A stretch of 64,000 nt of DNA, from assembly GCA_963843795.1 (NCBI GenBank), contig CAWJLW010000006.1, positions 1,178,001-1,242,000 on the forward strand. Direction: 5' to 3'. Made by a program: the position numbers and the translations under genes. The notes under the pieces are model-generated. The model searched no databases, was not told the DNA's origin, and was given only the letters and a program-made list of their open reading frames with translations. The DNA comes from an uncultured bacterium (lineage in GTDB: Bacteria > Armatimonadota > Abditibacteriia > Abditibacteriales > Abditibacteriaceae). This document shows, in pieces, positions 1,886 to 61,087 of this stretch (positions within the stretch are counted from its first letter, which is position 1; each line of letters begins with the position of its first letter).

Positions 1886-1914
1886 AACGCTCTGCAAGTA
1901 CTTGCAGAGCGTTT
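1885..1914. terminator. 30-bp perfect palindrome centred on GCAAGTACTTGC, terminator-like
   Basis: AAACGCTCTGCAAGT/ACTTGCAGAGCGTTT directly at the stop of the TPR gene. Confidence 0.55.
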
Positions 1915-1931
1915 GAAGAAGGTTTGAAATC

Positions 1932-2147
1932 ATGTCGTTGAGCAAAATTTTGATGGTGATGGGCGCCTTGATTTTCGTCGCGGGCATTGTTGTCGAAGCC
2001 GGTCGCCGTCTGGGATTAGGACGTTTGCCGGGAGATTTGCAGTTTCGCAGCGGTAACACGAGCGTTTATGTTCCCATTGTTACCTCGATTGTGATTTCTC
2101 TGGTGCTGACCGTTGTTTTGAACGTGTTGATGCGCTGGTTTCGCTGA
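1932..2147 (+). CDS. DUF2905 family small membrane protein
   Basis: LGRLPGDL...VYVPIVTSIVISLVLT signature, two hydrophobic segments. Confidence 0.85.
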   Translation: MSLSKILMVMGALIFVAGIVVEAGRRLGLGRLPGDLQFRSGNTSVYVPIVTSIVISLVLTVVLNVLMRWFR

Positions 2148-2163
2148 AGCGCATTTTGCTTAT

Positions 2164-2200
2164 TGTCCCGCGCCAACGCGAAAAGGCGCGGGACATTTTT
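2164..2200 (+). terminator. Rho-independent terminator
   Basis: TGTCCCGCGCC-loop-GGCGCGGGACA followed by TTTTT. Confidence 0.65.
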
Positions 2201-2231
2201 GTGTCTTTTATTTTTCTGCTATTTAATTTCT

Positions 2232-3333
2232 ATGTTGGTTGAAGCTCTCGATTTTCATCTGCCGCCCGAACTTATCGCGCAGGAACCCGCGCGCCCACGC
2301 GACAGCGCGCGTCTGCTGTATTGGAAGCGCGCGAGCAACGCGTTATCGCAGCGCGTCATCAGCGATTTGCCGGAAATTTTGCGTCCCGGCGACTTGCTCA
2401 TCGGCAACGATAGCCGAGTTTTGCGCGCGCGTTTGCGCGGCACCAAGCGCGAAAGCGGCGGGCGCGTCGAAGCGTTTTTGCTACGCGAACTAGCGCTCAA
2501 TCGCTGGCAATGTTTGCTTAAACCCAGCGCGCGCTTGCGTTCGCAAATGTGGCTGCGCTTCGCAACCGAAGACGGAAAAATTACGCTCGATGCCCAACCT
2601 TTAGCGCGAGAAGATCAAATCTGGCAGGTGCAATTCTTTCCCACCTCGCCGTACGATGATGTGCGCCAACTTTTGCCATTTTTGGGACAAGTTCCCTTGC
2701 CGCCTTACATTCAACATAGCGCACCGGAAAGCGATTACCAAACTGTTTACGCACGTTCTATTGACAAAAACTCAGACGAGGCGCAAGGATTGGATTCGGT
2801 CGCCGCGCCGACGGCGGGTTTGCATTTCACGCCTCAACTTTTAGAACGGTTACAAGCGGTTGGCATTGATCGAGCATTTGTCACTTTAGGTGTTGGGCTG
2901 GGAACTTTTTTGCCGGTGCAGTGCGAAGATTTGGACGATCATGTGATGCACGGCGAAGATTTCTGGATTTCCGAGACGACCGCCGCGCGTATCGCGGAAC
3001 AAAAAGCGCGTGGCGGTCGCGTGGTCGCGATTGGAACTACAGCGGCACGCGCGCTGGAAGCGGCCAGCGATGAAAAGGGTCGGGTGAAAAGCGGCCATGC
3101 GCACACGCAAATTTTCATTCGTCCCGGCTATCGTTTCCGCGCGGTTGATGCTTTGTTAACCAATTTTCATCTGCCGCGCTCGACGCTGCTGGCTTTGGTT
3201 TCGGCGTTTGTGGAAAACGATCCCGAAGTTCGTGCTGGCGAAGGTTTGCCGCAAGTTACTTGCAACCTATCAATTCGCGATTGAAGAGCGCTATCGTTTC
3301 TTTTCGTTTGGTGATGCGATGTTGATCGAGTGA
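2232..3333 (+). CDS. queA: S-adenosylmethionine:tRNA ribosyltransferase-isomerase (apparent +1 frameshift near 3256)
   Basis: DFHLPPELIAQEP, VPLPPYI, SVAAPTAGLHFT, TNFHLPRSTLL; removing one T at about 3256 restores the C-terminus YRFFSFGDAMLIE*. Confidence 0.93.
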
Positions 3334-3387
3334 AAGTGGGCAGCAAGTACTTGCAGTGGCGGCACACAATTCAAATACTATTTGGGC

Positions 3388-3990
3388 ATGAAAAATTCCG
3401 ACAAAGTTTCTGATGCGTTTCCTTCGCGTGCCACGCGGCAGCGTTACGCGAAGGAAACGCGCGCGCAGATGATGGAACGACTGACTAATCCGCTGCTTTC
3501 GCTGCATGAAGCGGGCGTGATTTTGAATGTGTGCGCTTCTACGCTGCGTCGTTACACCGATAGCGGTATTTTGCCTCACGAACGCACAGCGGGTGGCCAG
3601 CGCCGTTTCCGCTTGAACGATGTGCTGGCTTTGCTTGACGAACGCGAAGAACAGCGTCAAGCCGCTCGGCGCCAACGTCGCACGCGCGGTCGCATTCGTG
3701 GTTCCCAAGTCTCGCAATCCAGACCTGAACGCTTATCAGTGCGCGTCGAACCGAACAGAATTGCAGCGCAGCCACAACGCAAACCAGTGCTCAGTCTGGC
3801 TGAACAGCGTCGGATGGCGGCGGAAAAAGTTTTGCACGCGGCGCAGGCGCGCGTGCAGAAATTTTCTCAGGCCGCAGCCCAGAAAAACGCGGTGCGCACG
3901 ACACCTCCGCCGCGCATTTCGCTCAGTCGTTTGGCCGCTCTGGGACGCCGAGAAATGGACGAAGAGCGTGCGCAGCAGGATGAAGATTAA
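3388..3990 (+). CDS. Excisionase/BldC-like MerR-type HTH DNA-binding protein with basic C-terminal extension
   Basis: LLSLHEAGVILNVCASTLRRYTDSGILPHERTAGGQRRF. Confidence 0.75.
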   Translation: MKNSDKVSDAFPSRATRQRYAKETRAQMMERLTNPLLSLHEAGVILNVCASTLRRYTDSGILPHERTAGGQRRFRLNDVLALLDEREEQRQAARRQRRTRGRIRGSQVSQSRPERLSVRVEPNRIAAQPQRKPVLSLAEQRRMAAEKVLHAAQARVQKFSQAAAQKNAVRTTPPPRISLSRLAALGRREMDEERAQQDED

Positions 3991-4033
3991 AGCACAAAAG
4001 TAAAGCGTCCGGTGATTTTGGAAGGATATGTGG

Positions 4034-4067
4034 CAAAACGCTCTGCAAGTACTTGCAGAGCGTTTTG
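4034..4067. terminator. 34-bp perfect palindrome centred on the iterated motif
   Basis: CAAAACGCTCTGCAAGT/ACTTGCAGAGCGTTTTG, 44 nt after the upstream stop. Confidence 0.55.
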
Positions 4068-4105
4068 TGTTGAAGTTTTGTGGAAACTAAAGCGCACATT
4101 CAATT

Positions 4106-4879
4106 ATGGAAATTAGCGAATACACGCGTATGCACGCGCTCGAAACGCAATACTGGTGGTTTGTCGGTCGCCGCGCCATTATCGCCGACCTGCTCAATTG
4201 GAAATCCGATTTATCTTCACCGCAAATCCTCGATATCGGCTGTGGAACCGGCGCGAATCTGCCGATGCTGCGCGAATTTGCGGGCGAAAATGGTCGCATC
4301 GCCGCTATCGACTTTTCACCCCACGCGCTGCATTTCGCGCGCACGCATCCCAGCGCTGGTGAAGTTTCGCTTTTGCAAGGCGACGCGCTGCATTTGCCCT
4401 TCGCCGATGCCAGCTTCGACATCGTGACGATGTTCGATGTTTTGGAGCATTTGCCCGACGACAATCGCGCGCTTTCGGAAGTTCATCGTGTGCTAAAACC
4501 CGGCGGACGTTACGTGTGGAGCGTTCCGGCCTATCAGCATTTGTGGAGCGCGCACGATACCGCACTCCATCACTTTCGGCGCTATGAAAAAGACGGTTTG
4601 CGCCGTTTGATATTGAAAAATGGATTTCGCATCGGACGCTTATCGTTCGCGATGAGCTTGATGCCGCCGGTTGCGTGGCTATGGCGCAAAATGGTTTTGC
4701 CGTTCGTCCCCAAACGCCCGCGCGACGCCACACGGCATTCGCAAGGCGCAGTTCTACCATCTGTTCCGCCACTTTTCAACGCGATGCTGGTGCAATATCT
4801 GCGTGCTGAAGGTCGTATCATTCCACGTCGCCCGCTGAAATTCGGCACATCACTGGTTGGTGTGGCGATTAAGAAGTGA
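4106..4879 (+). CDS. Class I SAM-dependent methyltransferase
   Basis: ILDIGCGTG, GDALHLPFADASFD, DVLEH motifs. Confidence 0.88.
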   Translation: MEISEYTRMHALETQYWWFVGRRAIIADLLNWKSDLSSPQILDIGCGTGANLPMLREFAGENGRIAAIDFSPHALHFARTHPSAGEVSLLQGDALHLPFADASFDIVTMFDVLEHLPDDNRALSEVHRVLKPGGRYVWSVPAYQHLWSAHDTALHHFRRYEKDGLRRLILKNGFRIGRLSFAMSLMPPVAWLWRKMVLPFVPKRPRDATRHSQGAVLPSVPPLFNAMLVQYLRAEGRIIPRRPLKFGTSLVGVAIKK

Positions 4880-4900
4880 GGTTTGGATATCATCAAAACG

Positions 4901-4940
4901 AAAGCCGCGACTTCAATTTGAAGTCGCGGCTTTTCTTTTT
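4901..4940 (+). terminator. Rho-independent terminator between convergent genes
   Basis: AAAGCCGCGACTTCAA-T-TTGAAGTCGCGGCTTT followed by a T-rich tail. Confidence 0.75.
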
Positions 4941-4958
4941 CTCGTCGGAATTCGTTTT

Positions 4959-4987
4959 GTAGGGGCGAACACAAGATTCGCCTCTAC
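4959..4987. repeat. GTAG...CTAC REP-like hairpin
   Basis: GTAGGGGCGAA-cacaaga-TTCGCCTCTAC. Confidence 0.55.
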
Positions 4988-5047
4988 AAAACCGTGCATA
5001 AATCTTTTAAGTTCGCAATTATTTACGCCTGCAAGTACTTGCAGCGA

Positions 5048-6217
5048 CTAAACCAGGGCGATTTCGGTTTCGGTGTCGAAAACGTGAACGGCGTCGGCAT
5101 CCAAAACCACGTCCAGAGTTTGGCCTTCATGAGCTTTACTGGCGGCGTCAACTTGGGCGGTCAGAGCTTGGGTTCCGCTACGCAGAAACGTGACCGAAGT
5201 TGAACCCATCGGCTCGACAACTTCGACATCCATTGTGATGGATTCGCCGACATCTTTGGCCGAAAGCGGCACGAAATCTTTGTCGTGAATATCTTCGGGA
5301 CGAATGCCGAAAGTTACGCTTTTACCGTCGTAATCGCGTAAGGCATCGGCGCGGTCGGTGGGTAGAGGAATCGAAAACGTGCCCGCATCCAAAACCGGCA
5401 CGCCATTTTGGAAAGTCAAGTTAGCGGGCGCAAAGTTCATTGAAGGCGTTCCGATGAAACCGGCCACGAACATGTTGGCGGGCTTGTGATAAAGCGTTAG
5501 TGGTTCGTCGCACTGCTGTAACACGCCGTCGCGCATCACGGCGATGCGCTGACCCATCGTCATCGCTTCCACCTGATCGTGCGTCACGTAGATCGTGGTC
5601 ACGCCCAATCGACGATGCAATTTGATCAATTCGGCGCGCGTTTGCACGCGCAGCTTTGCGTCAAGGTTGGAAAGCGGCTCGTCCATCAAAAACACTTCAG
5701 GATGGCGCACAATCGCGCGTCCCAGCGCCACACGCTGACGTTGACCACCAGAAAGCGCTTTGGGCTTGCGGTCGAGCAGGTGAGTGATGCCCAACAGTTC
5801 GGCGGCTTCACGAATCTGCTTGTCAATTCCGTCGGCGATTTCTTTGGTTTTCGCGCCATTGGTAACGCGCTGGAAAAAGCTCGGCATTTCGCGCAATTTC
5901 AAGCCGAACGCCATGTTGTCGTAAACGCTCATGTGCGGATAAAGAGCATAGTTTTGAAAGACCATAGCAATGTTGCGATCGCGCGGGGGCAGATTGTTGA
6001 CCACGCGATCTCCGATGTAAATCTCGCCATCGGTCACGTCTTCGAGACCGGCCAGCATGCGCAATGCGGTCGATTTGCCACAGCCCGAAGGGCCAACCAG
6101 AACCAAAAATTCGCCGTCGCGAATTTCGATATTGAGATTATCGACCGCCTTGACCGATTTTTTGGTCTGAGCGTCGATAAAAGTTTTTTCCAGATTACGC
6201 AGCGCAACAGTTGCCAT
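5048..6217 (-). CDS. Sugar ABC transporter ATP-binding protein (MalK/UgpC/MsmX family)
   Basis: GPSGCGKST Walker A, LSGGQRQR signature, FLMDEPLSNLDAKLR, C-terminal TOBE-like region. Confidence 0.93.
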   Translation of the reverse strand: MATVALRNLEKTFIDAQTKKSVKAVDNLNIEIRDGEFLVLVGPSGCGKSTALRMLAGLEDVTDGEIYIGDRVVNNLPPRDRNIAMVFQNYALYPHMSVYDNMAFGLKLREMPSFFQRVTNGAKTKEIADGIDKQIREAAELLGITHLLDRKPKALSGGQRQRVALGRAIVRHPEVFLMDEPLSNLDAKLRVQTRAELIKLHRRLGVTTIYVTHDQVEAMTMGQRIAVMRDGVLQQCDEPLTLYHKPANMFVAGFIGTPSMNFAPANLTFQNGVPVLDAGTFSIPLPTDRADALRDYDGKSVTFGIRPEDIHDKDFVPLSAKDVGESITMDVEVVEPMGSTSVTFLRSGTQALTAQVDAASKAHEGQTLDVVLDADAVHVFDTETEIALV

Positions 6218-6388
6218 AGCTCGTTTCCTTTCCCAAATTTAAACGCTAAACGTCGTGTTTTGAATGCATTAATCCTATCACGAATCAGCCGTCACGACAC
6301 GCTTTTTTCCTGCGAGGCCAGCAGAAATCTGTCGATGTGCGCCGCAAGTACTTGCAGCAGCCTTTGTGCTTATGCCAACCTTGAACGG

Positions 6389-7423
6389 ATGAATTCTTCC
6401 GCTCTCACTCTCGAAAATCCGTCGTTTTCAACTTCCGAATCTCCCGATTTCGATGCGCTGGCCGACTTGTCGCTCAACGGCCAACAATTGTCGCGCGAAC
6501 AAGCACGCGCTGTCCTGCACGCCACGCCCGAACAAATGCCCGCACTTTTATCCGCTACGTCACGCGTGCGCGAAAAAACGCATGGCAAACGCGTGAAATT
6601 GTGCGTGCTGTTAAATGCACAAAGCGGCATTTGTCCCGAAGATTGCAATTACTGCTCGCAATCGAAAATTTCCACAGCGCCGGTCGAAAAATACAAGCTG
6701 CTGCCGCCCGAACGCATTCACGCCGATGCTCAGCGCGCCGCACAAGCCGGAGCGCGCCGCTTTTGTATCGTCACCGCCGCGCGCGGCCCGCGCCAGAAAG
6801 ACATCGACCAACTCAGCGAAGCCATCGGGCGCATTCGCGCCGATGCAAGTACGTGCGACCTGGAAATTTGCACTTCTTTGGGTTTGTTGGACGAAAATCA
6901 GTGCGCGCAATTGAAAGAGGCGGGCGTCGATTACGTCAATCACAATCTCAACACCAGCGCCGAACATTACGCGAAAATTTGTTCGACGCATACCTACCAA
7001 GATCGCATACGCACTCTGGAGAATGTGCAAAGCGCCGGTTTGAAAACCTGCAGCGGTGGCATTATCGGCATGGGTGAAAGCGAAGACGATATTTTGGAAT
7101 TGGCTTTCACGACACGCGCCATGAATATCGAATCGATTCCGGTGAATTTTCTTTTATCCATCAAAGGCACGCCGCTACAGGGCCGCGAATTTATCGACGC
7201 CGACTGGGGACTGAAAGTGTTGTGTCTGATGCGTTTGCTCAATCCCGATAAAGAAGTACGCGTTTCCGCGGGCCGTGAACGTTTGGGCGAACGCCAAGTT
7301 CAAGCGTTGTGTGCCGCCAATTCGCTGTTTGTCGATGGCTATTTGACGACGCCGGGCCAAAGCCATGAAGATGTTAAAGCGTGGATAGAAGCAGCAGGAT
7401 ATTCTGTAGAAGTCGGAATGTAG
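6389..7423 (+). CDS. bioB: Biotin synthase (radical SAM)
   Basis: CPEDCNYCSQS, NHNLNTS, CSGGIIGMGE, IPVNFL. Confidence 0.95.
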   Translation: MNSSALTLENPSFSTSESPDFDALADLSLNGQQLSREQARAVLHATPEQMPALLSATSRVREKTHGKRVKLCVLLNAQSGICPEDCNYCSQSKISTAPVEKYKLLPPERIHADAQRAAQAGARRFCIVTAARGPRQKDIDQLSEAIGRIRADASTCDLEICTSLGLLDENQCAQLKEAGVDYVNHNLNTSAEHYAKICSTHTYQDRIRTLENVQSAGLKTCSGGIIGMGESEDDILELAFTTRAMNIESIPVNFLLSIKGTPLQGREFIDADWGLKVLCLMRLLNPDKEVRVSAGRERLGERQVQALCAANSLFVDGYLTTPGQSHEDVKAWIEAAGYSVEVGM

Positions 7424-7547
7424 ATTGTGGAGATTAGAATGTGGAAGTCGCTTTTCTATGTTCCTACCACCCTGCAAGTACTTGCAGCAACCCCTGAACT
7501 TTTTAATTGAAACTTTCACCTTCTTTCCGTATATTCCCCTCCCGATT

Positions 7548-8504
7548 ATGAACGATTTTAGCCCGCGCAACTGGCGTTTAAAGATTTTTTCCGGTTTGGC
7601 AAATCCCGCGTTGGCGCAAGAAGTATGCGATTGGTTGGGAGAACCGTTGGGTAAAGCGCACATCACGCAATTTTCCAACGAGAATATTTTCGTGCAAATC
7701 GAGGAAAATGTGCGCGAGGCCGACGTTTATGTCATTCAGCCTTTCACCACTCCGGTTCACAACAGCATCATGCAACTGATGATTATGATGGACGCCCTAC
7801 GCTCGGCTTCGGCGCGTCGCATCACTGCGGTGATTCCTTACTATTCCTATGCGCGCTCGGACAAAAAGGACGCGCCGCGCATTTCCATTACAGGCCGTCT
7901 GATGGCCGATTTGCTCACGACCAGCGGCGCCAATCGCGTTTTGACGATGACGTTGCACGCGCCGCAAGTGCAGGGTTTTTTCTCGGTGCCGACCGACCAA
8001 TTGTTCGCCACGCCGATTCTCACACGCCACTTTCAAGAGATGGGTTTGGAAAACGTCGTCGTAGTCGCGCCTGACGCCGGACACGCCAAACGGGCTGGCG
8101 AATTTGCCCAACGTCTGCGCGCGCCGATTGCTTTTGTCGATAAGCGCCGCGTTAGTGACGAAGAAGTCGAAACTTCGGACGTAATCGGGCGCGTGCGTGG
8201 AAAAAATTGCTTGATCGTGGATGATGAAATCGCCGCAGGTTCGACCACGATTTCAACGATGCAAGTGCTTTTGGATGCGGGTGCGCGCGATGTTTACGCC
8301 GCCGCCACGCACGGAGTTTTGTGCGGTCCGGCTATTGAACGTTTGCAAAACAGCGCTTTAAAAAATGTCACGGTGACCAATACGGTTCATGTGCCCGCAG
8401 AAAAGCAATTCGATAGATTACAGGTTTTATCGGTGGCACCGCTGTTCGGTGCAGCAATTCGTTCGATTCACACAGGCGAAAGTATTTCCGCGCTTTTTAA
8501 CTAA
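7548..8504 (+). CDS. prs: Ribose-phosphate pyrophosphokinase
   Basis: VIPYYSYARSDKK, LHAPQVQGFF, VAPDAG, IVDDEIAAGST, ATHGVL. Confidence 0.95.
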   Translation: MNDFSPRNWRLKIFSGLANPALAQEVCDWLGEPLGKAHITQFSNENIFVQIEENVREADVYVIQPFTTPVHNSIMQLMIMMDALRSASARRITAVIPYYSYARSDKKDAPRISITGRLMADLLTTSGANRVLTMTLHAPQVQGFFSVPTDQLFATPILTRHFQEMGLENVVVVAPDAGHAKRAGEFAQRLRAPIAFVDKRRVSDEEVETSDVIGRVRGKNCLIVDDEIAAGSTTISTMQVLLDAGARDVYAAATHGVLCGPAIERLQNSALKNVTVTNTVHVPAEKQFDRLQVLSVAPLFGAAIRSIHTGESISALFN

Positions 8505-8589
8505 CTTCGGTAGTTGTTTCCAAGGGCCCAGGTGGAACGCAAGTACTTGCAGGGCGTGAAAAACCGAAATTGTTCAGCAAGGAAACGTG

Positions 8590-9087
8590 ATGTTTTGGGG
8601 ACGCAAAGAAGAACCGCCGCCACGCGATTGGAGGCTGCTGAGTACAATCGGCTTATGGATTTTGACGACGCTGCTGTTCGCGCTGTCGATTCCCATCGCT
8701 GCCATATTGAGCAGCGCGTTGGTTTCTTTCGTCGTTTTGGGTGCTGCGGTTTTGGCAACGGCGTTTATCTGGGCGTTTGGCGGACGCAACTGGCGAGACG
8801 AAAAAAGCGAGCGTCTGGGCCGCGAAGCCGCCGAAGCCGAAAATGCACAGTTGCGGGCGCAGGTCGAAGAGTTGGCATCGCAAGTCGAAGCGCTGGAAAC
8901 CATGCGTCGCTACGAACGCCGCGCGGGAATTTTCAACGACGAGCCACAAACCGATCCTCTCCAAAACGAAGAATTTGCTGTCGTGGTAGAAGAAACTATT
9001 AGCGCTCCGGCTGCGGTTTTTGCTTCCGAAACTGCAGCCAAAATTCGCTCGCGCTTCAAAAACGACAAACAAAAAATCGCTTCGTGA
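8590..9087 (+). CDS. Hypothetical membrane protein with coiled coil
   Basis: Two hydrophobic segments followed by a heptad-rich region; RBS AAGGA upstream. Confidence 0.6.
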   Translation: MFWGRKEEPPPRDWRLLSTIGLWILTTLLFALSIPIAAILSSALVSFVVLGAAVLATAFIWAFGGRNWRDEKSERLGREAAEAENAQLRAQVEELASQVEALETMRRYERRAGIFNDEPQTDPLQNEEFAVVVEETISAPAAVFASETAAKIRSRFKNDKQKIAS

Positions 9088-9175
9088 ACAACAGGTCAAA
9101 ACCTTCAAATCTTCATTCTCTTTTCCTCCGTGGCTAAAAATGACTACCCGCTGTCGCAAATATGGCGACAACGGG

Positions 9176-9200
9176 TATAATTGATTGAGTTAGCGCTAAC
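9176..9200 (+). promoter_or_regulatory. -10 box (TATAAT) and LacI-type operator palindrome GTTAGCGCTAAC
   Basis: TATAAT at 9176-9181; palindrome at 9189-9200 immediately upstream of the LacI gene. Confidence 0.65.
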
Positions 9201-9212
9201 GTAAATTAATAT

Positions 9213-10289
9213 ATGGCCCGATCCGCGCGAAGTGAGAATTTTGAATGGAGTGAAGGAGCGTCCAAGACCGCGACATTGCAAGATGTGGCAGAAGCGGCTG
9301 GCGTGACTTCGATGACGGTTTCGCGCGTGATTAAAGGTCGTGATGGCGTGGGCGAGGCGACGCGCGAGCGCGTGTTGCGCATCGCGGAACAGCTCAACTA
9401 TACGCCGAATTTGTCGGCGCGGGCTTTGGCGACCGGCAAAACCGGCGTTATCGCCGTCATCAGTGGCGGTTTGAATCAGTTTTATTACGCCAATATCGTT
9501 CATCTGCTGGAAGAGGAAATCACTTCCAGCGGTTATCAGATGCGATTGCTGCACACGCACAGCGATTTGAAAGATTTGGTGAGTTCGACCCATTCGACTG
9601 CCGTCGATGGCGTTATCATCGCGGGCAAATATCACTTGGTCGAAGAGTTCCGCGCATTGGCGCCGCAGGTGTTTCAATCGTGCGTGTTCATCGATGCCTC
9701 GAAGCATAGCGAAACCGATTACGTTCACAGCAATCTGGAAACTGCTGTGGAATCTGCGCTCGAAATGATGCTCCAAGCGGGACGCACTCGTTTGGCTTAT
9801 ATCGGTCACTTCCAAAGTTTTCAACAGAAATTGAGCGAATTAATTTCAAGTCGCGCCGATGAACCTGCGGTTGTCGAAGAACGAATGCAGGCTTATCTTT
9901 CGGTTGTTAAACGAGCGGGCTTAACGCCTGAACTTATCGGATTGCAGCCCGCGTTCATTCTGACCTCAAACAGCCTGAGCAAGTACTTGCAGGAGCGCGG
10001 TTGTCCCGATGGTTTGCTGTGCGTAAATGATGAAACCGCGATGTATGTCTATCGCGCGGTGCTGGATGCGGGCTATCGCGTGCCCGACGATGTTCTGCTG
10101 GTGGGCTGCGATGGCTTGCCTTTTATGGAATGTTTTGAGCCGCCGCTGAGTACTATTGCTCAGCCGATGGCGGAAATTTGCGCGCTGGCGTGGCAATTTT
10201 TGCAAGCGCGCATCGCCAATCGCACTCTTCCTCGGCAACACCAATCCTTTGAGGCCCAATTGGTCGTTCGGCGCTCGTTGCAGCCGTAA
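9213..10289 (+). CDS. LacI family transcriptional regulator
   Basis: TLQDVAEAAGVTSMTVSRV HTH; YTPNLSARAL; PPLSTIAQP. Confidence 0.93.
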   Translation: MARSARSENFEWSEGASKTATLQDVAEAAGVTSMTVSRVIKGRDGVGEATRERVLRIAEQLNYTPNLSARALATGKTGVIAVISGGLNQFYYANIVHLLEEEITSSGYQMRLLHTHSDLKDLVSSTHSTAVDGVIIAGKYHLVEEFRALAPQVFQSCVFIDASKHSETDYVHSNLETAVESALEMMLQAGRTRLAYIGHFQSFQQKLSELISSRADEPAVVEERMQAYLSVVKRAGLTPELIGLQPAFILTSNSLSKYLQERGCPDGLLCVNDETAMYVYRAVLDAGYRVPDDVLLVGCDGLPFMECFEPPLSTIAQPMAEICALAWQFLQARIANRTLPRQHQSFEAQLVVRRSLQP

Positions 10290-10310
10290 TTGAATTCGAT
10301 TTTTTATGCT

Positions 10311-14181: not shown

Positions 14182-14215
14182 GAAGATGTGTTGCAAGTAC
14201 TTGCAACACATCTTC
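14182..14215. terminator. 34-bp perfect palindrome centred on the iterated motif, between convergent genes
   Basis: GAAGATGTGTTGCAAGT/ACTTGCAACACATCTTC. Confidence 0.55.
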
Positions 14216-30542: not shown

Positions 30543-30586
30543 ACCACAACCGCCCGCTGCAAGTACTTGCAGCGGGCGGTTGTGGT
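30543..30586. repeat. 44-bp perfect palindrome centred on the iterated motif
   Basis: ACCACAACCGCCCGCTGCAAGT/ACTTGCAGCGGGCGGTTGTGGT. Confidence 0.9.
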
Positions 30587-41236: not shown

Positions 41237-41270
41237 AAACGCCCGCTGCAAGTACTTGCAGCGGGCGTTT
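41237..41270 (+). terminator. 34-bp palindrome centred on the iterated motif, after the GH2 stop
   Basis: AAACGCCCGCTGCAAGT/ACTTGCAGCGGGCGTTT(T). Confidence 0.6.
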
Positions 41271-46392: not shown

Positions 46393-46445
46393 TAACTTCG
46401 CGCTGCAAGTACTGCGCATCTAAGTTCGTTGTGTATTGGCGCTTT

Positions 46446-46549: not shown

Positions 46550-46581
46550 TGCGCGTGTTGCAAGTACTTGCAACACGCGCA
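46550..46581. repeat. 32-bp perfect palindrome centred on the iterated motif
   Basis: TGCGCGTGTTGCAAGT/ACTTGCAACACGCGCA, just upstream of a start codon. Confidence 0.9.
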
Positions 46582-51193: not shown

Positions 51194-51226
51194 AACTGCG
51201 TTGTAGGTACTTGCAGGGCAATTTGT

Positions 51227-51323
51227 GTAGGGCGCGGGTCTCTGACCAACCCATAGAAGTAAAAACAAGATTTGATTCGCGATTTCCATCGAAATAAGGG
51301 CGGTTCAGAGACCCGCACCCTAC
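51227..51323. repeat. GTAG-type REP inverted doublet (REPIN-like)
   Basis: GTAGGGCGCGGGTCTCTGACCAACCC ... GGGCGGTTCAGAGACCCGCACCCTAC. Confidence 0.8.
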
Positions 51324-51432
51324 AAAGCTCATCTGCGGTTGCAACTTTTCGCGATGGGCAAAAAGAGCAACCCACGCGTGATGCGATTCGTCCCGATGCG
51401 CGGTTTGTTATAATTAACCCGTTCCAAAAATT

Positions 51433-51891: not shown

Positions 51892-52045
51892 ATTGAAAAT
51901 TCGCTTCATTTGCATTACGCAATGAAGTGTTTCGTCGCGCCTGCTGTCTACACCAAAAATGTTTGGTGCAAGTACTTGCAGGGCGTTTTGTGCTGTTTAT
52001 TTTCCCAAAAACTAAAGACGTTTCATCCCATTAGAGGTTAGATTT

Positions 52046-55000
52046 ATGCTCGACTTTAAAAATTTATTCGGCAAGAAAACCGTTGATCCCAACGCGCCGA
52101 TTTCGCATCAAGCGCCCGGCGGTATCGCCGGAGCAGTTTCCAAGCTGTTCGACAAAAACGAAAAAGAAGTCGCCAAGCTGCGACCGACCATTGATCGCAT
52201 TCGCGAACTTGGCGAAGAACTCAAATCGCTGCCCGACGAAGAAATCAAAGCCCGCTCGCAGGCCTTGCGCGAACGCTTCAAAACCGACGTGACCCAACGT
52301 TTGGGCGAATTTAAAGATGGAGAAGGCAACGCTTACGGTTGGCAGGAACTCGGCACCGAGCTTTCGTGGAGCGACGATTACGCTCGCCTGCGACTGGAAA
52401 CTGAAAAGCAAGTTTTGAACGAATTGTTGCCCGAAGCCTTCGCTCTGGTACGCGAAGCGGGCGAACGCACAATTGGTTTGCGCCATTACGATGTGCAGCT
52501 TATCGGCGGCGCGGTTTTGCATTCGGGGCGCATCGCCGAAATGAAAACCGGTGAAGGCAAAACACTCGTCGCCACTTCGCCGGTTTATCTCAATGCACTC
52601 AGCGGGCGCGGCGTGCATTTGATTACGGTCAACGATTATTTGGCCGAGCGCGATGCGAACTGGATGCGGCCCGTTTATGAATTTTTGGGTCTCACGGTCG
52701 CGTTTTTGTTCAACGATATGGACAACGAGGCGCGCAAAGCTGCTTATCAATGCGACGTTTTGTATGCGACCAACAGCGAAGTTGGCTTCGATTATCTGCG
52801 CGATAACATGGCGCGCTCGCCCGAAGATATGGTGCAACGCGCGCTCAACTACGCCGTGGTCGATGAAGTTGACAACATCCTGATCGACGAAGCGCGCACG
52901 CCGCTGATTATCTCGGCGCAAGTTGCCAAAACTGACCGCGCTTTGCGCCGACAGGCGATGGCGAAAACTTGCGACAAATTGGCGCAGCAATTGATGCCTT
53001 CCGTCGTTGACCGCGAAATTGATGCGCTTTTGGATACGCACACGCATAAAGGCCGCGTTTCGATTGATGGATTAATGGAAGACATCATCGGGCGCGGCGC
53101 GTTTACAGAAGCGACTTCGTATCTTGTCGATGCCTATCTCAGCGCGGAAAACAGCGCGCGCGTCGAAAATGCCGCACATTTGCTGGATGTGGCGAACGAA
53201 CTTTCGCAGCATGCTTTAATTGATGAGAGCGGGCGCTCCCGCCTGGAAAAATTGGCCTTGGAAGCCGCCGATGTGGAAAAAGTGCGCGATGCGTGGACGG
53301 CAGAAGTTTCGCATTTGACCGAACCGCTGGCGCGCGCGTGGTCGGTCGGGCAGAGCAGCGATTGGGACGTTGATGCTGTGGCGCGCGAACTATCGCTGCC
53401 AGTTGGCGAGCGCGCAGCGATTGCCGAGTATGAGGGAAGTGGACGCGAAATCATCGCGCGCGTGGTCGGCGATGAGGCCCAACATCGCGGCTTTGTGAAT
53501 GATGGAGATGTGCTCGCCAAAGCCTTGCTGGAAGAATCCGAAGACGTGGCCGGGCAGGTTTTGGATGTGTGTTTGAACGGGCCGGGGGCGCTGCACGAAG
53601 CCGATGCAATGCTGGGCGAAGGTTTGCCCGAAGAAGAAAAGCTCTCCGCTGGCGAAGTGGGCGCGACTGAATTGCGCACCCTTATTGGCGCCATGGAGCA
53701 AATCGCGTTGCGCGGTTTGCTGCCGTTCGATGTGTTGGAACGTTTGTGGCAGACGGTGACTTTACCGCAAGGCGCGGACAAATTGCGTAAAGTAATCGCG
53801 CAAACTATTATCGAAAATCCCGGCGCCAATGCACGCGAAATTTCACTGCGTTGCCAGTCGTACGAAGCCGAACGCCAGAAGTTTTTGCAAACACAAGCGG
53901 GCATTCTGCGAGGCGCTTTGGATGGTTATCCCAGCGTAGCGGGCAAGGCCGAAACCGGGGAAAGCGCGCTGACCCTCAGGCGTTCGTTGCAAAGCGAAAT
54001 TACCAAAAGTGGGCCGTTTGCGCAAAGTATGAAAGCTGTGCGCGACTGGCGACAAGATAACGAACGCGCGCACCATCGCGTGGCCGAAACCCTGGCCGAA
54101 GAAATGGGGCAATGGGTCGAAACTCCGCCCAATGCGCGCAAACAACTCGCTGCCTTGACGCTTGAAGGCGGTAGCAGCCAACAAATGCTGGAGCGCGTTT
54201 TGGTCGCTGTGCGCGATTTGCCGGGCGAAAACACCGAACTGCCGGCGTTGGTCGGCGAAGCGACGCGACAAATCGAAGAATGGCGTCATCAAAGCGCGCA
54301 GGAATTGACCGAACGCATTAGCTCACACATCGAATTGCCCGCAGATGCGCAGTTGCAATTGCAAGAAGCAATTGAAAATGGCGAATACCCGGACACTTTC
54401 GATCAGTTCGCCGGTGAGGTTTTGCTTTCTTCACCAACCGTCGCGCCCCTCGCGGATGCGGTCGATGAATACGGCGTGCGTTTGGAAGAATTTAAATCCG
54501 CGCAGAATCAATCGCTGCTCGAATTCATTGCAAGTACTTGCGACCTGACAACTGATGCCGTGGATATGATTGGCGAAGTTTTGAACAGCCCGATTAAAGG
54601 CGCGCTGGATGAAGCCGTTTTTGGCGAATTGGCGCGCGATACGGTTTCGCGCCATTTGGAACCATTATTGACAGCCGAGAATGCCGATGCGTTTGCCGAG
54701 GAAGTCAAGCGCCGTATTCCGCTCGCCAAAGAAGTGCAGAACAAACTGCGCGCGGCAGATTTTGCCGGTCGTTCGGGCGATGCGCTCCGGCGTTCGATGG
54801 TGCGTCTGGTCGAACGTTCGCTGGAGATCATGCCATTTGAAGATTACAAGCGCGTGGTGCGCAACCTAGGTTGGTTGACTGAAAAGGATGAAAAGCGTCG
54901 CCAATCGGCTCTAACCGATATGGGCACGCTCATCGCCGAACGCGCGGCGGGCACACCAGCGTTTACCGATCCTGAAAACTTTCTGGATACGCTGATTGCG

Positions 55001-58000
55001 GGTGAAATTCTCACCGACGACGAAGCGGCGATTGTGCAGCGCGCGCAAACCGAAGCGCCCGACGAAACCCTGACGCAGACGATTGACCGCGTTTTGCGCT
55101 TGCCCGCCGAACGTCGCCGCCGCTTGGCCGAAGCCAAGTTGCAGGAAGTGCAAAACGTCTTGGATCAGGCGATTCGAGCGCACGCTTTATTCTCTCGCGA
55201 AGTGCATTATGTGATCGATTTGAACCCGGAAACCGGCAAGCGAGAAATCGTGATCGTCGATGAATCGACCGGTCGCAAAATGCCAGGCCGTCGTTTCAGC
55301 GAAGGTTTGCACGAGGCTTTGGAAGCCAAGCAAGGTTTGGAAGTGCAATTGGAATCGCAGACGGTTGCTTCGATCACGATTCAAAACTATTTCCGCCTTT
55401 ACAATAAGCTCAGTGGAATGACGGGCACGGCGAAAACCGAAGAACAAGAATTTGCCAAAACGTATGGCATGGAAGTGGTTTCGATTCCGACCAACCGCCC
55501 CATTCAGCGTCAGGATTTCCCCGACGTGGTTTACAAAACCAAAGAAGCCAAAATGCGCGCGGCGACTTTCGAGATTTTGGAACATCACTGCGTTGATCAG
55601 CCGGTTTTGGTCGGCACGCGCTCGGTTGAAGTTTCCGAACGCACCAGCGAACGATTGAAAGCGCAACCGTTGCAAGCCTTGGTGCTAGCGCACCTTGCGA
55701 AAACCGTGATTTGGGAATCGAAAGAAATGTCAGAAGAGCAAAAGCTGCAATTCCTGACCGCGCTGCGTGTTCCCTTAGTGATGCCGCCGGTTGAAGACGC
55801 ACAGGAATTGAAAAAGCAAGGTTTGCGCGCCGAACCGCTGCCGCTGAGTCAGATCAAGCAAATCGTGAAAAGCGTCGGCGTCGATCCTGACCCGCTGGCC
55901 GAAGCCAACATCGACAAACTGATGAGCTTGTTTTCGGTGAACAACGCCAATCGCGACCGATTGACTTTAGCGTTGAAAAACGGCTTGGCGCATTCGGTGT
56001 TAAATGCGAAAAACCACCGCAACGAAGCGCGCATTATCGCCGAAGCAGCGCGTCCAGGTGCGGTGACGATTGCGACCAACATGGCCGGTCGCGGCGTCGA
56101 TATTATGCTCGGCGGCGTTTTGGATGTCGAATCGCGCTGGCGCGTGATGACGATGCAAGCCCTGGCGCGCCATCTCGAAAATCGCTCGCTTCATGTGCGC
56201 AGCCGTAACGCAGCATCGACGGAAAAATTTGTCACTCGCTTGGCTCCACAAAGTTTGCAAGCCTTAGCGTGGGCAACTTTGATCGGTGAAAAATTGGAAG
56301 CGCTGGAAAAAAGCGGCGTTTTAATCGGGCAGGGCGCGAAAGAAATGCGTGACACGCTGGGGCAGGAAATCACGATTGCCGACTTGCAGCAGAAAGTTCG
56401 CAGTCGCGCGCGTCGTTTGAAAATTGATAAGCAATTGCCGCTCGACCTGAGCTACAACGACCCGCAAGTACTTGCTGCGTTGCAAAATCGCATTGCAACG
56501 CTGGGCTATCAAAAACCGGAGATTTCCGCACTGCAAAGCGCATTGGAAAATGGCGTGCCTTCGCAAGCGGCAGGACGCGATCCGCTGGAAAGCATGATTT
56601 TGGGCGCGCTGAGCGTACCATTGAGCATCGCTCAGCAGGGCGCGCAAAAGCTGGTGCAAGTACTTGCCGACGTGCCCGACTTGGATCGCGCGTTGCTGCA
56701 AGCGTGCATCGATTCCGGCAGTGACGAATTGGACGTGACACAAATCGCGCCCGTTGTCGGTGATGTGACCGATGAATGGTGTGCCACTCGTTTGCATGAT
56801 TGGGACGTGACCAATCGCGACGAGGCACGTCAAATTCTGGAACAGTTGCCTGAAGAACAAATCGAAATCAACGAAGCGCAAATCGCGCGTTTGTTAGGTG
56901 AGCAGAATCTGGGTGGCGGCTGGGTGCGCGAGCGTTTGAATTCTTGGGAAATCTGTTCGATTCCACGTTCATTTGAAGCGAGCGAAGAGATCGCGCAATT
57001 GCTGGGTGATAACGTCGTCGTGCATTATCGTTTGGATACACAAGCCGCGCAAGTACTTGCGGAGCGTTTCGAGAACGACCAGATGGCGCAATTGGAAACG
57101 ACCGAAATTGATGCGCCGAACGTGATTTTATTAAACGATCTGGTGCAGCAGATCGGCGGGCAACCAGATTGGTTGTCGCCAGAATGGTTGCACGGACAGT
57201 TGCTGGGCATGAACCTGGTCACTGGCGATAACGACGTATTCCAAGGCCAAATGATGGCCCAAGCGCAGGACGAAAACGGGCAGGTGCAGGAAATGCCGAT
57301 TGATGTGATGATTTACCGCATTACATTGGCGCGCTTGCTGGCCGCTCTCGATTCGACCTTACGCGAAGCCGTAGTGCGTGTCGGCGATGATGCGGTCAAA
57401 GTCTTAGATTACGTGCGCGAACATGGCGCGTGGGCCAACGAACTGGTGACGCGCGATTATATCGCGGCGCGTTTGCCCATGTTGGGCGATATTCCCATCA
57501 CGCAGAACCAGAATAACGCAGTCAACATCGAAACGGGCGTGGCCGGACAAAGCGCCGATCTGGTGTTGGACGACGAACCTCGTCCCGAAGAGATCGCCCA
57601 CACTTCCGAGCAAGAGGAAGTTTTGGCCCTCGGCGGCTTGCACATTCTGGGCACCGAGCGCCATGAATCGCGGCGCATCGACCATCAGTTGCGCGGTCGC
57701 GCTGGTCGTCAGGGCGATCCGGGTTCGAGCCGCTTTTATGTGTCTTTGGAAGACGAATTGTGGCGTTTGTTCGGCGTGCGCGGGCAGTGGCTGCTGAACA
57801 AATGGGACGAGGACGAGCCGGTCGAAGCGGGCATGATTTCCAAGTCGATTGAGCGCGCACAGAAGAAGGTCGAGCTGAACCATTTCGAAGGCCGCAAACA
57901 CGTCTTGCAATATGACGACGTGATGAATGTGCAGCGCGAAGTGATTTATCGCGAACGCCGCCGCGCCTTGTTGGGTGGCGACTTACATGAAACGGTTTTG

Positions 58001-58735
58001 GATATGGCTCAACAAGCGGCGATTGGCGAGGCCGAAAAGCATTGTCCGGGCGGCGTGCGACCCGAAGAATGGGACGTGCATAAATTGATGCTCGGCCTGA
58101 GCCGCATCTTCGGCGCGCACCGTATCGGCAAACATTTGAATGTTGAAGAACTGGAAGGTTTGCGTTCGCGCGAGGAGATGGACGATCACCTGAAAGAAGT
58201 GATGGCCGAAATTTATGCCGAGCGCGAACATGAAATGGGCGCCGAATATCTGCGCGGCCTGGAGCGTTGGCTGGTCACGCGCACCATCGATGAATATTGG
58301 ATGGAGCATTTGGCGGAAATGGATTATCTGCGCGAAGCGATCTGGCAGGAAGGTTACGCGCAGAAAGAACCGATTGGCGTTTATCGTCAGGAAGGCTTTG
58401 CCCTGTTCCAAAAAATGCTTGGCGAAATTCGCCGCGAAGTTTCGGAGGGCATTTTCTCGCAACAAAACGAGCCGCAGACCATGGAAAGCTTGCAACTCAG
58501 CGGCGTCGATTTGAGCGGTTTGGATTTGTCCGAATTGCAAGAAGGCCGTCTGGTTGAAGCGCTGTCAATGGACGATGATGGAATGGACGACGGCGCGCTG
58601 TTGGCCAAAGATGCCGATGGCGAAAACGAAGACCAAGTCATCGTGCGTCAATCCTCACATGCTCCAGCAATGGCAGGCAGTTCCGAAGTGGAAAATTCCA
58701 ATCGTGCAGCACGGCGCGATAAAAAGAATCGTTAA
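52046..58735 (+). CDS. secA: Preprotein translocase ATPase SecA, giant 2229-aa form
   Basis: [17 protein letters not shown]-like [80 protein letters not shown]. Confidence 0.95.
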
Positions 58736-58744
58736 GCTACAACC

Positions 58745-58778
58745 CAAAGCCTCCTGCAAGTACTTGCAGGAGGCTTTG
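58745..58778 (+). terminator. 34-bp perfect palindrome centred on the iterated motif, after the secA stop
   Basis: CAAAGCCTCCTGCAAGT/ACTTGCAGGAGGCTTTG. Confidence 0.55.
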
Positions 58779-58788
58779 TGCTTTCATT

Positions 58789-59307
58789 ATGAAACAACAT
58801 TACGCAATGATGGCGGCTTACAATCGTTGGATGAACGGGCGATTATATGAAGCGTGCTCGACTTTGAGCGATGAAATGCGGCGCGAAAATCGTGGCGCGT
58901 TTTTTCGCTCGATTCATGATACATTCAATCATCTGGTGCTGGCCGATCAAATTTGGCTGGGTCGCTTTCGCGGCGTGCCATTTGAGGTCGCTTCTTTGGA
59001 TGAACCGATGGCCGCTTCGTGGGAAGAGTTGCACGCGTTGCGAATGCGGATTGATGTTGAGATTGAGGAATGGTTGAACGGTGTTGATGAAGAGCAATTG
59101 CAGGGCAAGTTGACGTTTCGAACGGTAATCAATCCGCAGCAAATTTCTTTGCCACTGTGGTTGAGCGTCACGCATTTCTTTAATCATCAAACGCATCATC
59201 GCGGGCAAATTACGACGTTGATGGAACAAATCGGCTGCGATTCGGGCGTCACCGATTTGCTTTATTCGCCGTCTGCTATCGCGCTGCGCTCGGTTTCGCC
59301 CTTATAA
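58789..59307 (+). CDS. DinB/YfiT family protein
   Basis: YNRWMN, SIHDTFNHLVLAD, HFFNHQTHHRGQ. Confidence 0.9.
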   Translation: MKQHYAMMAAYNRWMNGRLYEACSTLSDEMRRENRGAFFRSIHDTFNHLVLADQIWLGRFRGVPFEVASLDEPMAASWEELHALRMRIDVEIEEWLNGVDEEQLQGKLTFRTVINPQQISLPLWLSVTHFFNHQTHHRGQITTLMEQIGCDSGVTDLLYSPSAIALRSVSPL

Positions 59308-59309
59308 TC

Positions 59310-59765
59310 ATGGAATTTTCACTCACTACGCCCGCGCTGTTGTTTCCGGCGATTTCGCTTTTACTGCTGGCTTACACCAATCGTTTCTTGGCTCTTGCAG
59401 CTTTGATTCGTAACCTGCACGCGCGTTATCAGGACGCACCAGAACCCTTGTTGCGCGCGCAAATCGAAGCGTTGCGAACGCGTGTGAAATTGATTCGTGA
59501 TATGCAGACTTTGGGTGTTTCGGGCTTATTCTGCTGCGTGTTTTGTATGCTGTTGTTGTTTGTGGGCAAGCTTGTCGCTGGCAAATTTGTTTTCGCCGTC
59601 GCCTTGCTTTTATTGCTGGCATCGCTGGGTTTGTCGATTCGAGAGATTCAGATTTCGGTGAATGCGCTGAACTTGCAACTTAGCGATTTAGATGTCGAAG
59701 AAAAAGATAATCAAGCGCCACGTCGTTGGCGTAATGTCGAACGCAGTGAGAACGATGCGGCGTGA
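59310..59765 (+). CDS. DUF2721 family membrane protein
   Basis: TTPALLFPAISLLLLAYTNRF; REIQISVNAL. Confidence 0.85.
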   Translation: MEFSLTTPALLFPAISLLLLAYTNRFLALAALIRNLHARYQDAPEPLLRAQIEALRTRVKLIRDMQTLGVSGLFCCVFCMLLLFVGKLVAGKFVFAVALLLLLASLGLSIREIQISVNALNLQLSDLDVEEKDNQAPRRWRNVERSENDAA

Positions 59766-59790
59766 ATGTTAAAAAAATCGCGCGCGATGC

Positions 59791-59819
59791 TTGACGAGAC
59801 GCGTGAGGCGCGTTAAGAT
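59791..59819 (+). promoter_or_regulatory. Sigma70-type promoter of tRNA-Ala
   Basis: TTGACG-17 bp-TAAGAT, A-tract upstream. Confidence 0.65.
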
Positions 59820-59854
59820 TACATGGCGCCTGAAAAATGGCGCGCTGTAAGATT

Positions 59855-59927
59855 GGGGCCATAGCTCAGCTGGGAGAGCGCCTGAATGGCATTCAGGAGG
59901 TCAGCGGTTCGATCCCGCTTGGCTCCA
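59855..59927 (+). tRNA. tRNA-Ala (GGC), CCA not encoded
   Basis: GGGGCCA/TGGCTCC acceptor stem with G3:U70; anticodon arm CCTGA-ATGGCAT-TCAGG; GGTTCGATCC T-arm. Confidence 0.96.
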
Positions 59928-61087
59928 TTTTTCAAGGCGGGCATTGGCGAAAATTGTATTTCGTCAATCCCCGCCTTACGTTTTCTGGTTGCTCCTGCCG
60001 TTTCGCCGCTTTGAAGCTCTTAAATCCCCGTTTAGGAGCCAAAAAATGGCAAATACCCATCCTGATTATAAGTCACACTCACATTTTGTTCCGCAGTCCA
60101 GATCACAACCCCAAATCGTCGTAAAACCCTCCGTTATCGTTGCCGGCCCGGTCCCGAGCACCCCACTCGAGGCTTCGCCCCTTCAAGCTTCGCCCCTTCA
60201 AATCGTGGTCGACAATTTTCGCGCGCTCCTAACCTTTCTGCATCCACTTCTGTGCCTTCACTCAATGGTGTGGTGATCGACGCCGATGCCGCTTCCTTGC
60301 TAAATCTGGTTTTGCAGCAGTTACGTGAAGGCGGAATTCTATCTCCAGCCGCCCTGAATACTTCGGGCGCCGGCATCCCGCTCGCGGCTCTCAAGCGCTT
60401 CAATGATGACTGGCTCTTTATTGTGCGCCACGGCGAAGGTTTATGATGCACTATGCCATCGTGAGCAACCAACACTTGCAGGAAAACATCTGCGCCACTC
60501 GCCGGTGTCGCGGATGTTGAAGAAGCGGTAAATCCGCGTGCCATTTTGCCTCCTCATTTATTTGCTTCACTTTTCTTGAAGCTTTGCTGTTCCACTCTCC
60601 TGGCTGCAAGTACTTGCAGCCAGAATGGCGGAGCAAATTCAATTCTCGCGCGTTACGGTTCAAAGGCTTCAAGAAGAATCCAGCCCCAAAATCGACCCTT
60701 TCCGGCGCATAGTGAAGAACAATCTTTTTTCCGCGTTTTATTGCTAATGACTCGCATTCAAGCTCTCACGCGATTTCATGAAATCTCCATTGCCGCATGG
60801 CGCTCGCAAAGAGATCGCGTCGCTGACGAAGCTCAGCTTGCTTTTGATTTTGCCTTTGGGTTTCTGGCCCCTTACCTCGGGCACGTTCTCTCGGCTGCGT
60901 GCCTGCAACCGATTACTGCAAGTACTCGCGAAGCTGCCGTTTTCGGTTGGACAGTAAAAACAGTAAAAGAGGAAGAGCGTAAAAATGAAGGTGTCAGTAA
61001 ATTAAAACGAAAAGGATTTAGTGAGGAGTAAATCACGGGCGGCGACAGTAAAGTAGTTTTGTTCCAACAAGACGCCCAACAAAGCAC

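Follow-up and report, generated by a model that had tools for sequence, protein, structure and literature searches.

We analyzed a stretch of 64,000 nucleotides (the window) from an uncultured soil bacterium of the Abditibacteriaceae, in which the perfect 12-bp palindrome GCAAGTACTTGC is highly iterated. Exact copies, to which no strand is assigned, begin at positions 1894, 3343, 4045, 5031, 6344, 7474, 8539, 9979, 10922, 14193, 17105, 17384, 18420, 20612, 21269, 23801, 25802, 27278, 28412, 29547, 30559, 34085, 34129, 36424, 38866, 41248, 41534, 43908, 44203, 46560, 47441, 48307, 50254, 51772, 51968, 54530, 56464, 56656, 57049, 58756, and 60606 (the last ending at 60617). These make 41 copies, and 100 dinucleotide shuffles of the window yielded none. 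The usual extension is CT...AG, outside which lie G/C-rich bases and phased A/T tracts. Copies with one or two mismatches, likewise without strand, begin at 6845, 18669, 19410, 30479, 30611, 41290, 41483, 51203, and 60918 (span, 6845 to 60929). A preliminary description made from the letters of the window had reported about 41 exact copies, about 29 of them outside coding sequence (CDS), and 11 near-variants. Each figure is borne out: our own gene calls place 28 copies between genes, 1 at a gene edge, and 12 in predicted CDS (9979, 10922, 17384, 20612, 25802, 36424, 44203, 48307, 54530, 56464, 56656, and 57049; span, 9979 to 57060), where they are read as QVLA, KYL, or ASTC, and all 11 variants exist, two of them (3251 and 46405) probably as assembly errors.

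Abundance and distribution in the source genome

Genome-wide k-mer counts against a Markov null, a check proposed in the preliminary description, show that the enrichment holds. The source genome (G000; 4.30 Mb in 11 contigs, 92% complete, with the window on contig C6) carries 2,567 copies on all 11 contigs (597 per Mb, 0.6 per kb), against 0.09 to 0.2 expected from a motif-masked Markov model, and GCAAGTACTTGC is its commonest 12-mer. The word extends to TGCAAGTACTTGCA in 1,290 of these copies and to CTGCAAGTACTTGCAG in 879, and all single-mismatch forms together number 506. Both arms of the palindrome are needed, with about 8% of AAGTACTT-centered 10-mers occurring without the other arm.

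Genes of the source genome were called with a hexamer model of our own, and 3,317 were kept (84% coding). Most copies (70%) are intergenic: 1,244 lie between tandem genes, 292 between convergent and 267 between divergent genes, 740 in CDS, and 24 at edges or ends, which corresponds to 0.20 copies per kb in CDS versus 2.7 per kb between genes. A copy is found in 593 of the 3,317 genes, and the reading frames of the CDS copies are split 488/141/111; the favored frame gives QVLA, which occurs 558 times in the proteome versus 28 times for its reverse. Along C6 the density varies little between 0.1 and 3.6 Mb (47 to 83 per 100 kb), with 30 copies in the first 100 kb, none in the last 23 kb, and no origin-to-terminus gradient. 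Spacing is more even than under a gene-aware null (coefficient of variation, 0.74 versus 0.83 ± 0.02; lowest null, 0.79), and this under-dispersion was measured at 2 to 50 kb. Transposase-like genes and a type I restriction-modification (R-M) island beside a tRNA are found in the two largest gaps, of about 26 kb each, and the 16S gene has no copy.

Two other regions are poor in the motif. The end of C6 (G000:C6:3600000-3623414) has 67% GC, genes resembling those of a type IV secretion system, and no copies, as in an integrated element or a chimeric join. A phage-tail/baseplate-like cluster (G000:C3:2634-27317), which by eye from its translations resembles a contractile injection system, lies on a 40-kb contig with three copies.

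Support from short reads

Indel errors do occur at some sites of the long-read assembly, as would be expected if the word were an assembly, adapter, or amplification artifact: 66 copies in the source genome share the same one-base insertion at the center (12 in predicted CDS, mostly next to the end of an open reading frame), and one copy that was checked is an assembly error. This recurrent long-read error may reflect base modification at the motif center. The artifact explanation, which the preliminary description had named as a possible refutation, is nevertheless already refuted and has next to no probability. Soil short-read contigs of a near-identical strain match the stretches around 4045, 8539, and 54530 and carry these copies, so the word is not a long-read artifact, and the frame bias of the CDS copies points the same way.

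The same contigs correct two indel variants. A 13-base variant (3251 to 3263, + strand) inside queA has an extra base that shifts the frame; because the short-read contig of run X1 lacks this base, the true site is likely an exact copy. An 11-base variant (46405 to 46415, + strand) misses one base, and the X1 contig, from a slightly different but near strain, has the full 12-mer. Both variants are thus probably assembly errors. Because the short-read runs belong to a single study, in which the source sample may be included, a better independent check is given by related words, or dialects, which six other genomes and independent metagenome contigs carry, among them the near-identical CAAGTACTTG dialect in locus L144.

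Dialects across the family

Enrichment in relatives, also raised in the preliminary description, is absent for the exact word, which none of 30 relatives carries more than 3 times, but relatives have dialects of their own. Counts of AGTACT are bimodal over 27 family genomes (2,813 to 4,733 copies in six, 1 to 285 in the rest), and 7 of the 27, here called motif-rich, carry a dialect on the core RAGTAC. These include CAAAGTACTTTG in G001, WTCGAGTACTCGAW in G009, G015, and G038, and CGAGTACTCG in G012. Dialects follow phylogeny: TCGAGTACTCGA is common to G009, G015, and G038, which form a sister trio on a quick ComEC tree of 26 rows (without G014). The same tree places the motif-poor genera g3 and g5 between the motif-rich genera g1 and g6, which implies several losses or at least two gains of the motif. 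In G006 the word AGTACGGTCGA is balanced between strands (1,188 and 1,224 occurrences) and mostly sits inside the 24-bp site AGTAC-N14-GTACT (991 copies). A second two-part form, AAAAGTACGCC...GGCGTACTTTT in L138, has the same 18-bp spacing, and hybrids of both forms are found in G017 and in the source genome.

Among 80 metagenome loci around the methylase described below, several carry AAAAGTACTTTT, TCGAGTACTCGA, or CAAGTACTTG (L144). The apparent dialects ATGAGTACTCAT (L129, L164) and GGAGTACTCC (L128, L145) were not counted because they have few copies, several inside the methylase gene itself. None of 182 genomes of the phylum outside the family has an excess of RAGTACT, and no dispersed AGTAC-type word was found in 27- to 158-kb samples of ten motif-poor genomes. 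A scan for the 16-mer in 15 of 64 parts of the GTDB-wide collection gave 36 single matches in unrelated genomes, which is chance level, and viral contigs gave no paired sites and 6 single matches.

Several further observations concern these words outside their home genomes. A metal-efflux/metal-resistance-like island on contig C2 of the source genome contains at least four different, foreign AGTAC dialects, which suggests transfer among family members. Dialects also occur on small contigs or spots of GTAC-avoiding genomes (G032:C98; G034:C179 and C210; G033:C61 and C269; G005:C6 and C273), as transfer or binning contamination. In the phylum families f11 and f34, RAGTACT is almost absent, with 0 to 26 copies on each strand, which suggests that GTAC is restricted in further families as well. 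Other dispersed repeats occur in motif-poor relatives, namely AGCAGCCACGG-type words in G007 and G016 and TTAACCACAGAT-type words in G004.

An orphan methylase and its nuclease partner

The source genome encodes one N4/N6 methyltransferase by Pfam (256 aa, DPPY; C6:2517365-2518135) without conserved neighbors, and a homologue is present in 21 of the 27 family genomes. Its neighbor in G017 and G034, arranged tail to tail, is a gene weakly matching a type II restriction-enzyme model. In PDB the methylase matches M.RsrI best (E = 1.6e-36); for the nuclease there is just a weak match to REase_II. Matches in PDB, Pfam, PADLOC, plasmids, and the Atlas did not reveal the specificity of either enzyme. 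The nuclease is found in 13 of the 27 genomes, none of them motif-rich and 11 of them nearly without CGTACC, while all 7 motif-rich genomes have the methylase. Nine genomes carry the methylase as an orphan, and 7 of these are motif-rich compared to 0 of the 18 others (Fisher P = 4e-5, uncorrected for kinship). Within genus g6, G017 is the only motif-poor member and the only one with the nuclease. The median ratio of CGTACC to control is 0.007 in the 13 genomes with the nuclease and 0.23 in the 14 without it, and in a set of 41 motif-poor loci surrounding methylase homologues (7 kb or longer), the most depleted 4-base palindrome is GTAC in 22 and CTAG in 15. Because nuclease-bearing genomes nearly lack CGTACC, we infer that GTAC is the target of this R-M pair; the methylase would have been kept after nuclease loss. 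Of the methyltransferase-type sites suggested in the preliminary description, GTAC is thus a probable one, judged from its avoidance. TGCA as a second methylation site is not supported: it is absent from most dialects, and a motif scan of the source genome revealed no C5 methyltransferase motif.

The tight association of the motif with an orphan methylase and nuclease loss would also be expected if the word were made and kept by methylation-directed bias of repair or recombination in the cell, as an HIP1-type ratchet or a Chi-like hot spot with no role in uptake. HIP1 and the GATC/CGATCG methylases offer a parallel (PMC4390886, PMC13756078), and the unique perfect arms described below suggest local conversion between arms. 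However, the 12-mer accounts for only 2,567 of the 6,374 GTAC sites of the source genome, and the depletion of GTAC persists outside it (observed/expected, 0.61). A ratchet also poorly explains 24-bp two-part dialects, flanks phased to about 65 bp, and a similar constraint on all six positions, and we regard this explanation as quite unlikely.

Origin of copies and shared positions

The origin of copies was examined in 389 alignments to 1.1 Mb of relatives' DNA, in which 72 motif sites were readable. At 60 of the 72 aligned CDS sites there is no gap within 3 residues, and amino acid identity at motif sites is 0.28 to 0.36, compared to a background of 0.62 to 0.63. Copies thus arise by substitution, at variable codons where the protein tolerates a change. 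GTAC occurs at the same place in motif-rich relatives at 13 of 39 gap-free sites (five of these represent one site of the source genome in related contigs) and in motif-poor relatives at 0 of 21. At conserved VL pairs, with source genome sites counted once per dialect group, the relative's own dialect is present at 9 of 11 motif sites versus 12 of 220 non-motif sites. Shared sites would either have been inherited, with their arms rewritten to the local dialect, or regained at the same permissive places.

Hairpins and possible transcription termination

The preliminary description stated that flanks differ between copies. This is correct for their sequence (3,927 of 5,134 arm 10-mers are distinct), but it missed the phased A/T pattern described below and the 525 of 2,567 copies with perfect arms of at least 7 bp (7 to 33 bp, mostly of unique sequence; about 10 expected). 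Such long-armed copies make up 184 of the 292 convergent copies but 11 of the 740 in CDS. Among 700 random genes of C6, 551 are followed by a gap of at least 40 nt, and the core lies within 100 nt of the stop codon in 324; these 551 gaps contain 200 terminator-like hairpins, of which 131 hold AGTACT. Long-armed copies probably act in termination, which is best seen as a secondary role.

The window contains seven such hairpin copies, all without strand. The copy at 1885 to 1914 has 9-bp perfect arms and a GUAC loop 8 bp past a stop codon and is terminator-like (−21 kcal/mol); that at 4034 to 4067 has 11-bp perfect arms and A/T ends and resembles a two-way terminator (−25.6 kcal/mol), with its core on an identical short-read contig. 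Those at 14182 to 14215 and 41237 to 41270 have 11-bp arms and convergent genes on either side. The remaining three are at 30543 to 30586 (16-bp perfect arms), 46550 to 46581 (10-bp arms), and 58745 to 58778 (11-bp arms, 20 bp past the secA stop). The secA gene itself (52046 to 58735, + strand) encodes 2,229 aa, matches SecA models in four separate stretches, and includes four motif copies; the inserts may be inteins. A short inverted repeat bounded by GTAG...CTAC at 4959 to 4987, which we take to be of the repetitive extragenic palindrome (REP) type, is unrelated to the motif; its word GTAGGGGC occurs 15 times in the source genome with varied continuations. An Rfam search of the window returned only a tRNA.

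Given the 525 long-armed copies, and especially the convergent ones, the motif might be mainly a terminator module or an REP/NTS-like hairpin repeat copied by a nuclease or transposase. REP/BIME and NTS-Ssn repeats are likewise intergenic palindromes that form hairpins after genes, and Ssn nucleases accompany repeated hairpins (PMC11893778). Here, however, about 80% of copies have arms shorter than 7 bp, 740 copies are in CDS and mostly arose without insertion, and the arms are mostly unique rather than shared between copies. No small Ssn-like GIY-YIG gene was found in the source genome, where GIY-YIG matches sit in frames of 450 and 672 aa; no search for a RAYT transposase was made. The substitution origin largely refutes a hairpin repeat as the primary role, and we consider it very improbable.

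Phased flanks and a possible DNA-wrapping protein

Around isolated short-armed copies, A/T content peaks at about 4, 14.5, 25, 35.5, 46, 56.5, and 67 bp from the center (best period, 10.6 to 10.7 bp), with an amplitude of 5.6 to 6.4% compared to 0.3 to 0.7% in controls matched for the first tract. The phasing persists in arms without the first T-tract and is seen at all three codon positions, while non-motif GTAC sites are flat. Neighboring copies 17 to 110 bp apart are themselves helically phased (145 pairs; Rayleigh P ≈ 5e-9). Among dialects, phasing is significant in the G009 type, borderline in G001 and in AAAAGTACTTTT contigs, and not significant in G012 or L144. Control analyses gave weaker signals: about 2.5% downstream of the DNA uptake sequence (DUS) in 382 kb of one Neisseria metagenome-assembled genome (null 95th percentile, 1.6 to 1.9) and 1.6% at HIP1 in 250 kb of one Nostoc plasmid (null 95th percentile, 1.5), compared to 4.7 to 4.9% in source genome subsamples of similar size. 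Phased flanks are therefore stronger in the source genome but not unique to it. The weak A/T phasing downstream of the Neisseria DUS copies (G212, L285-L304), with a period of 10.6 to 11.5 bp, lies near the top of the null.

These flanks raise the possibility that the sites anchor an abundant dimeric chromosome-organizing protein that bends or wraps about 130 bp, as a sequence-positioned nucleosome-like particle or a loop anchor. The phasing at all codon positions, well above matched controls, the helical phasing of close neighbors, and the two-fold symmetric or fixed 18-bp two-part geometry are all consistent with such a protein, and a role in chromosome structure has been proposed for HIP1 (PMC5861425). 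The long flanks with their phasing and the rigid two-part geometry suit a dimer that wraps DNA inside the cell and a pilin about equally well. Protein searches argue the other way: the histone fold PF00808 was not found in any of the five genomes searched, each genome examined has one HU, and no extra ParB/Noc paralogue was found in G006, G009, or G012. The absence of an origin-to-terminus gradient, the weak or nonsignificant phasing in G012 and L144, and the weaker phasing downstream of DUS also count against it, and an essential architectural code is unlikely to be missing from 20 of 27 family genomes or to switch dialect fast. We view a chromosome-organizing role as possible, if on the unlikely side. 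Sites of the parS/NBS type were rejected as a class: this needs a dedicated ParB/Noc paralogue and few sites, and G006, G009, and G012 have one ParB each. The source genome has four ordinary parS sites near its parB.

An unlikely variant joins this protein to the methylase history. In a domesticated R-M system, methylated GTAC would after nuclease loss have become the center of a species-specific code, with a site every ~1.6 kb; a dimeric protein would wrap about 130 bp per site in nucleosome-like phase, and reader and code would co-evolve into dialects, including the jump from one centered site to two half-sites 18 bp apart.

Preferred cleavage and wrapping by gyrase would also give a two-fold symmetric center with periodic flanks. 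The 12-mer fits the −4G/+8C, −2A/+6T, and +1G/+4C preferences of type II topoisomerases (PMC12324340), and symmetric flanks with a 10.75-bp period extend over 130 bp at gyrase sites (PMC6379681). However, with centers aligned at offset 0, the flanks run in antiphase to the published matrix for gyrase (r = −0.55; Table DS10 of PMC6379681), and the interpretation was rejected on this ground. The −1T/+5A preference (PMC10117906) is absent from the 12-mer, most other dialects miss −4G, and several miss −2A. Unlike the gyrase motif, the word is also exact in thousands of copies, and motif-rich and motif-poor genomes alike have one GyrA/ParC-family gene. We give gyrase sites very little credence.

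A possible role in natural transformation

The explanation that we favor, and hold tentatively, is that GCAAGTACTTGC is the lineage's version of a family-wide GTAC-based DNA signal, likely methylated by the orphan methyltransferase and likely read in natural transformation. Nuclease loss would have come first, freeing GTAC. DNA bearing the local word would be taken up or recombined more often, spreading the word by biased gene conversion. The sites are presumably methylated, and a putative reader with two-fold symmetry, to which the phased flanks point, would bend DNA around them. Uptake is thought to begin by internal DNA kinking helped by A/T tracts (PMC7811141), which fits symmetric bending at these sites. 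Methylated HIP1 raises transformation (10.1101/2024.09.10.611283), DUS dialects vary around a conserved CTG (PMC3630211), and the densities of the uptake signal sequence (USS) and DUS are 0.80 and 0.89 per kb (PMC2817400). The source genome has ComEC, ComEA, DprA, and a pilB-pilT-pilC-pilD type IV pilus operon with tip pilins. Several of the pilus genes (G000:C6:385800-402500; L245) are split in the source genome and whole in relatives, probably through long-read frameshifts.

Several results weigh against uptake of a methylated GTAC signal. ComEC is present in 27 of 27 family genomes, and G002 and G017 have the pilus operon although they are motif-poor, so competence genes do not separate the two groups. 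None of the candidates considered for a reader protein (histone fold, HU, ParB/Noc, small Ssn-type GIY-YIG proteins, Mrr, small basic proteins, and tip pilins) gave a result, and no sequence-specific receptor was identified among 58 genes with a prepilin motif; Mrr is not found in G006, the small basic proteins are mostly ribosomal, and the tip pilins also occur in motif-poor genomes. Known uptake sequences are not palindromic (PMC2817400), while GCAAGTACTTGC is a perfect palindrome, and G006 has a fixed 18-bp spacing where Neisseria inverted pairs vary. Flank phasing in the source genome is about twice that at DUS. One-off copies spare the central GTAC no more than the arms, with similar constraint at all six positions. 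The orphan methylase is present in G004 and G007, of which 142 and 87 kb contain no such motif. In G016 and G002, GTAC is scarce although neither methylase nor nuclease was found. On contig L128, 8 copies of AGTACT occur in 9.8 kb although the nuclease next to the methylase appears intact. Finally, kinship among the genomes and the incompleteness of several (G001, 63%) mean that the P values overstate the association.

Comparison with known systems and significance

The preliminary description had proposed a lineage-specific iterated signal of the HIP1 or DUS kind, distinct from miniature inverted-repeat transposable elements and CRISPR repeats, and our results support this. Cyanobacterial HIPs (GCGATCGC; PMC4390886, PMC5861425, PMC13756078) are likewise short palindromes at hundreds of copies per Mb, with palindromic extensions, lineage variants, spread by substitution, and conservation at orthologous sites, and their 4-base core is tied to an orphan-type methyltransferase, as GTAC probably is here. 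Unlike HIP1, with its GATC core, the words described here have a GTAC core, belong to another phylum, are 10 to 24 bp long and 70% intergenic, form many terminator-like hairpins, include two-part dialects, have strongly phased flanks, and do not spare the central bases in one-off copies. Membership in HIP1 was rejected on core and lineage, since the nearest named proteins are from Abditibacteriota (including Abditibacterium utsteinense, Abditibacteriaceae) rather than cyanobacteria, and AGTACT does not occur in the available text of PMC4390886.

The motif resembles DUS and USS (PMC2817400, PMC3630211, PMC7811141) in its density and even spacing, in being under-represented and frame-biased in CDS, and in falling at poorly conserved codons. 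It is likewise rare in foreign DNA and used in terminators, varies in dialects around a conserved core, has A/T-rich flanks, and shows stray foreign dialects in islands; the G006 half-site AAGTACGGT is one base from the USS AAGTGCGGT. It differs in being mostly a perfect palindrome or a fixed two-part site probably tied to an R-M site, and no receptor like ComP or ComN was identified. The non-palindromic character of DUS and USS is not shared by the source genome word, and G006 half-sites lie mostly in the 24-bp palindrome. By analogy, GCAAGTACTTGC appears to work like HIP1 and DUS/USS, and it is a member of neither by sequence or lineage. Literature searches, in which subscription journals were mostly outside coverage, returned no description of GCAAGTACTTGC, of AGTACT as an overrepresented palindrome in bacterial genomes, or of palindromic repeats in abditibacterial genomes.

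To our knowledge, genome-saturating signal words are established in few lineages (Neisseriaceae, Pasteurellaceae, and cyanobacteria), and we know of no settled function for HIP1 after 30 years. The Abditibacteriaceae-type family is a further, independent case that brings its own natural controls. It has six or more dialects, its sister genomes differ in whether they carry the word, and the nuclease of its methylase-nuclease pair tracks absence of the word. Its system joins features of DUS (terminators, dialects, and islands) with those of HIP1 (a palindrome and an orphan methylase). The dialects could help to bin genomes of soil and polar bacteria and to spot transferred DNA, and the family allows tests of whether words of this kind originate at a disarmed restriction site and of what drives them, uptake or chromosome structure.

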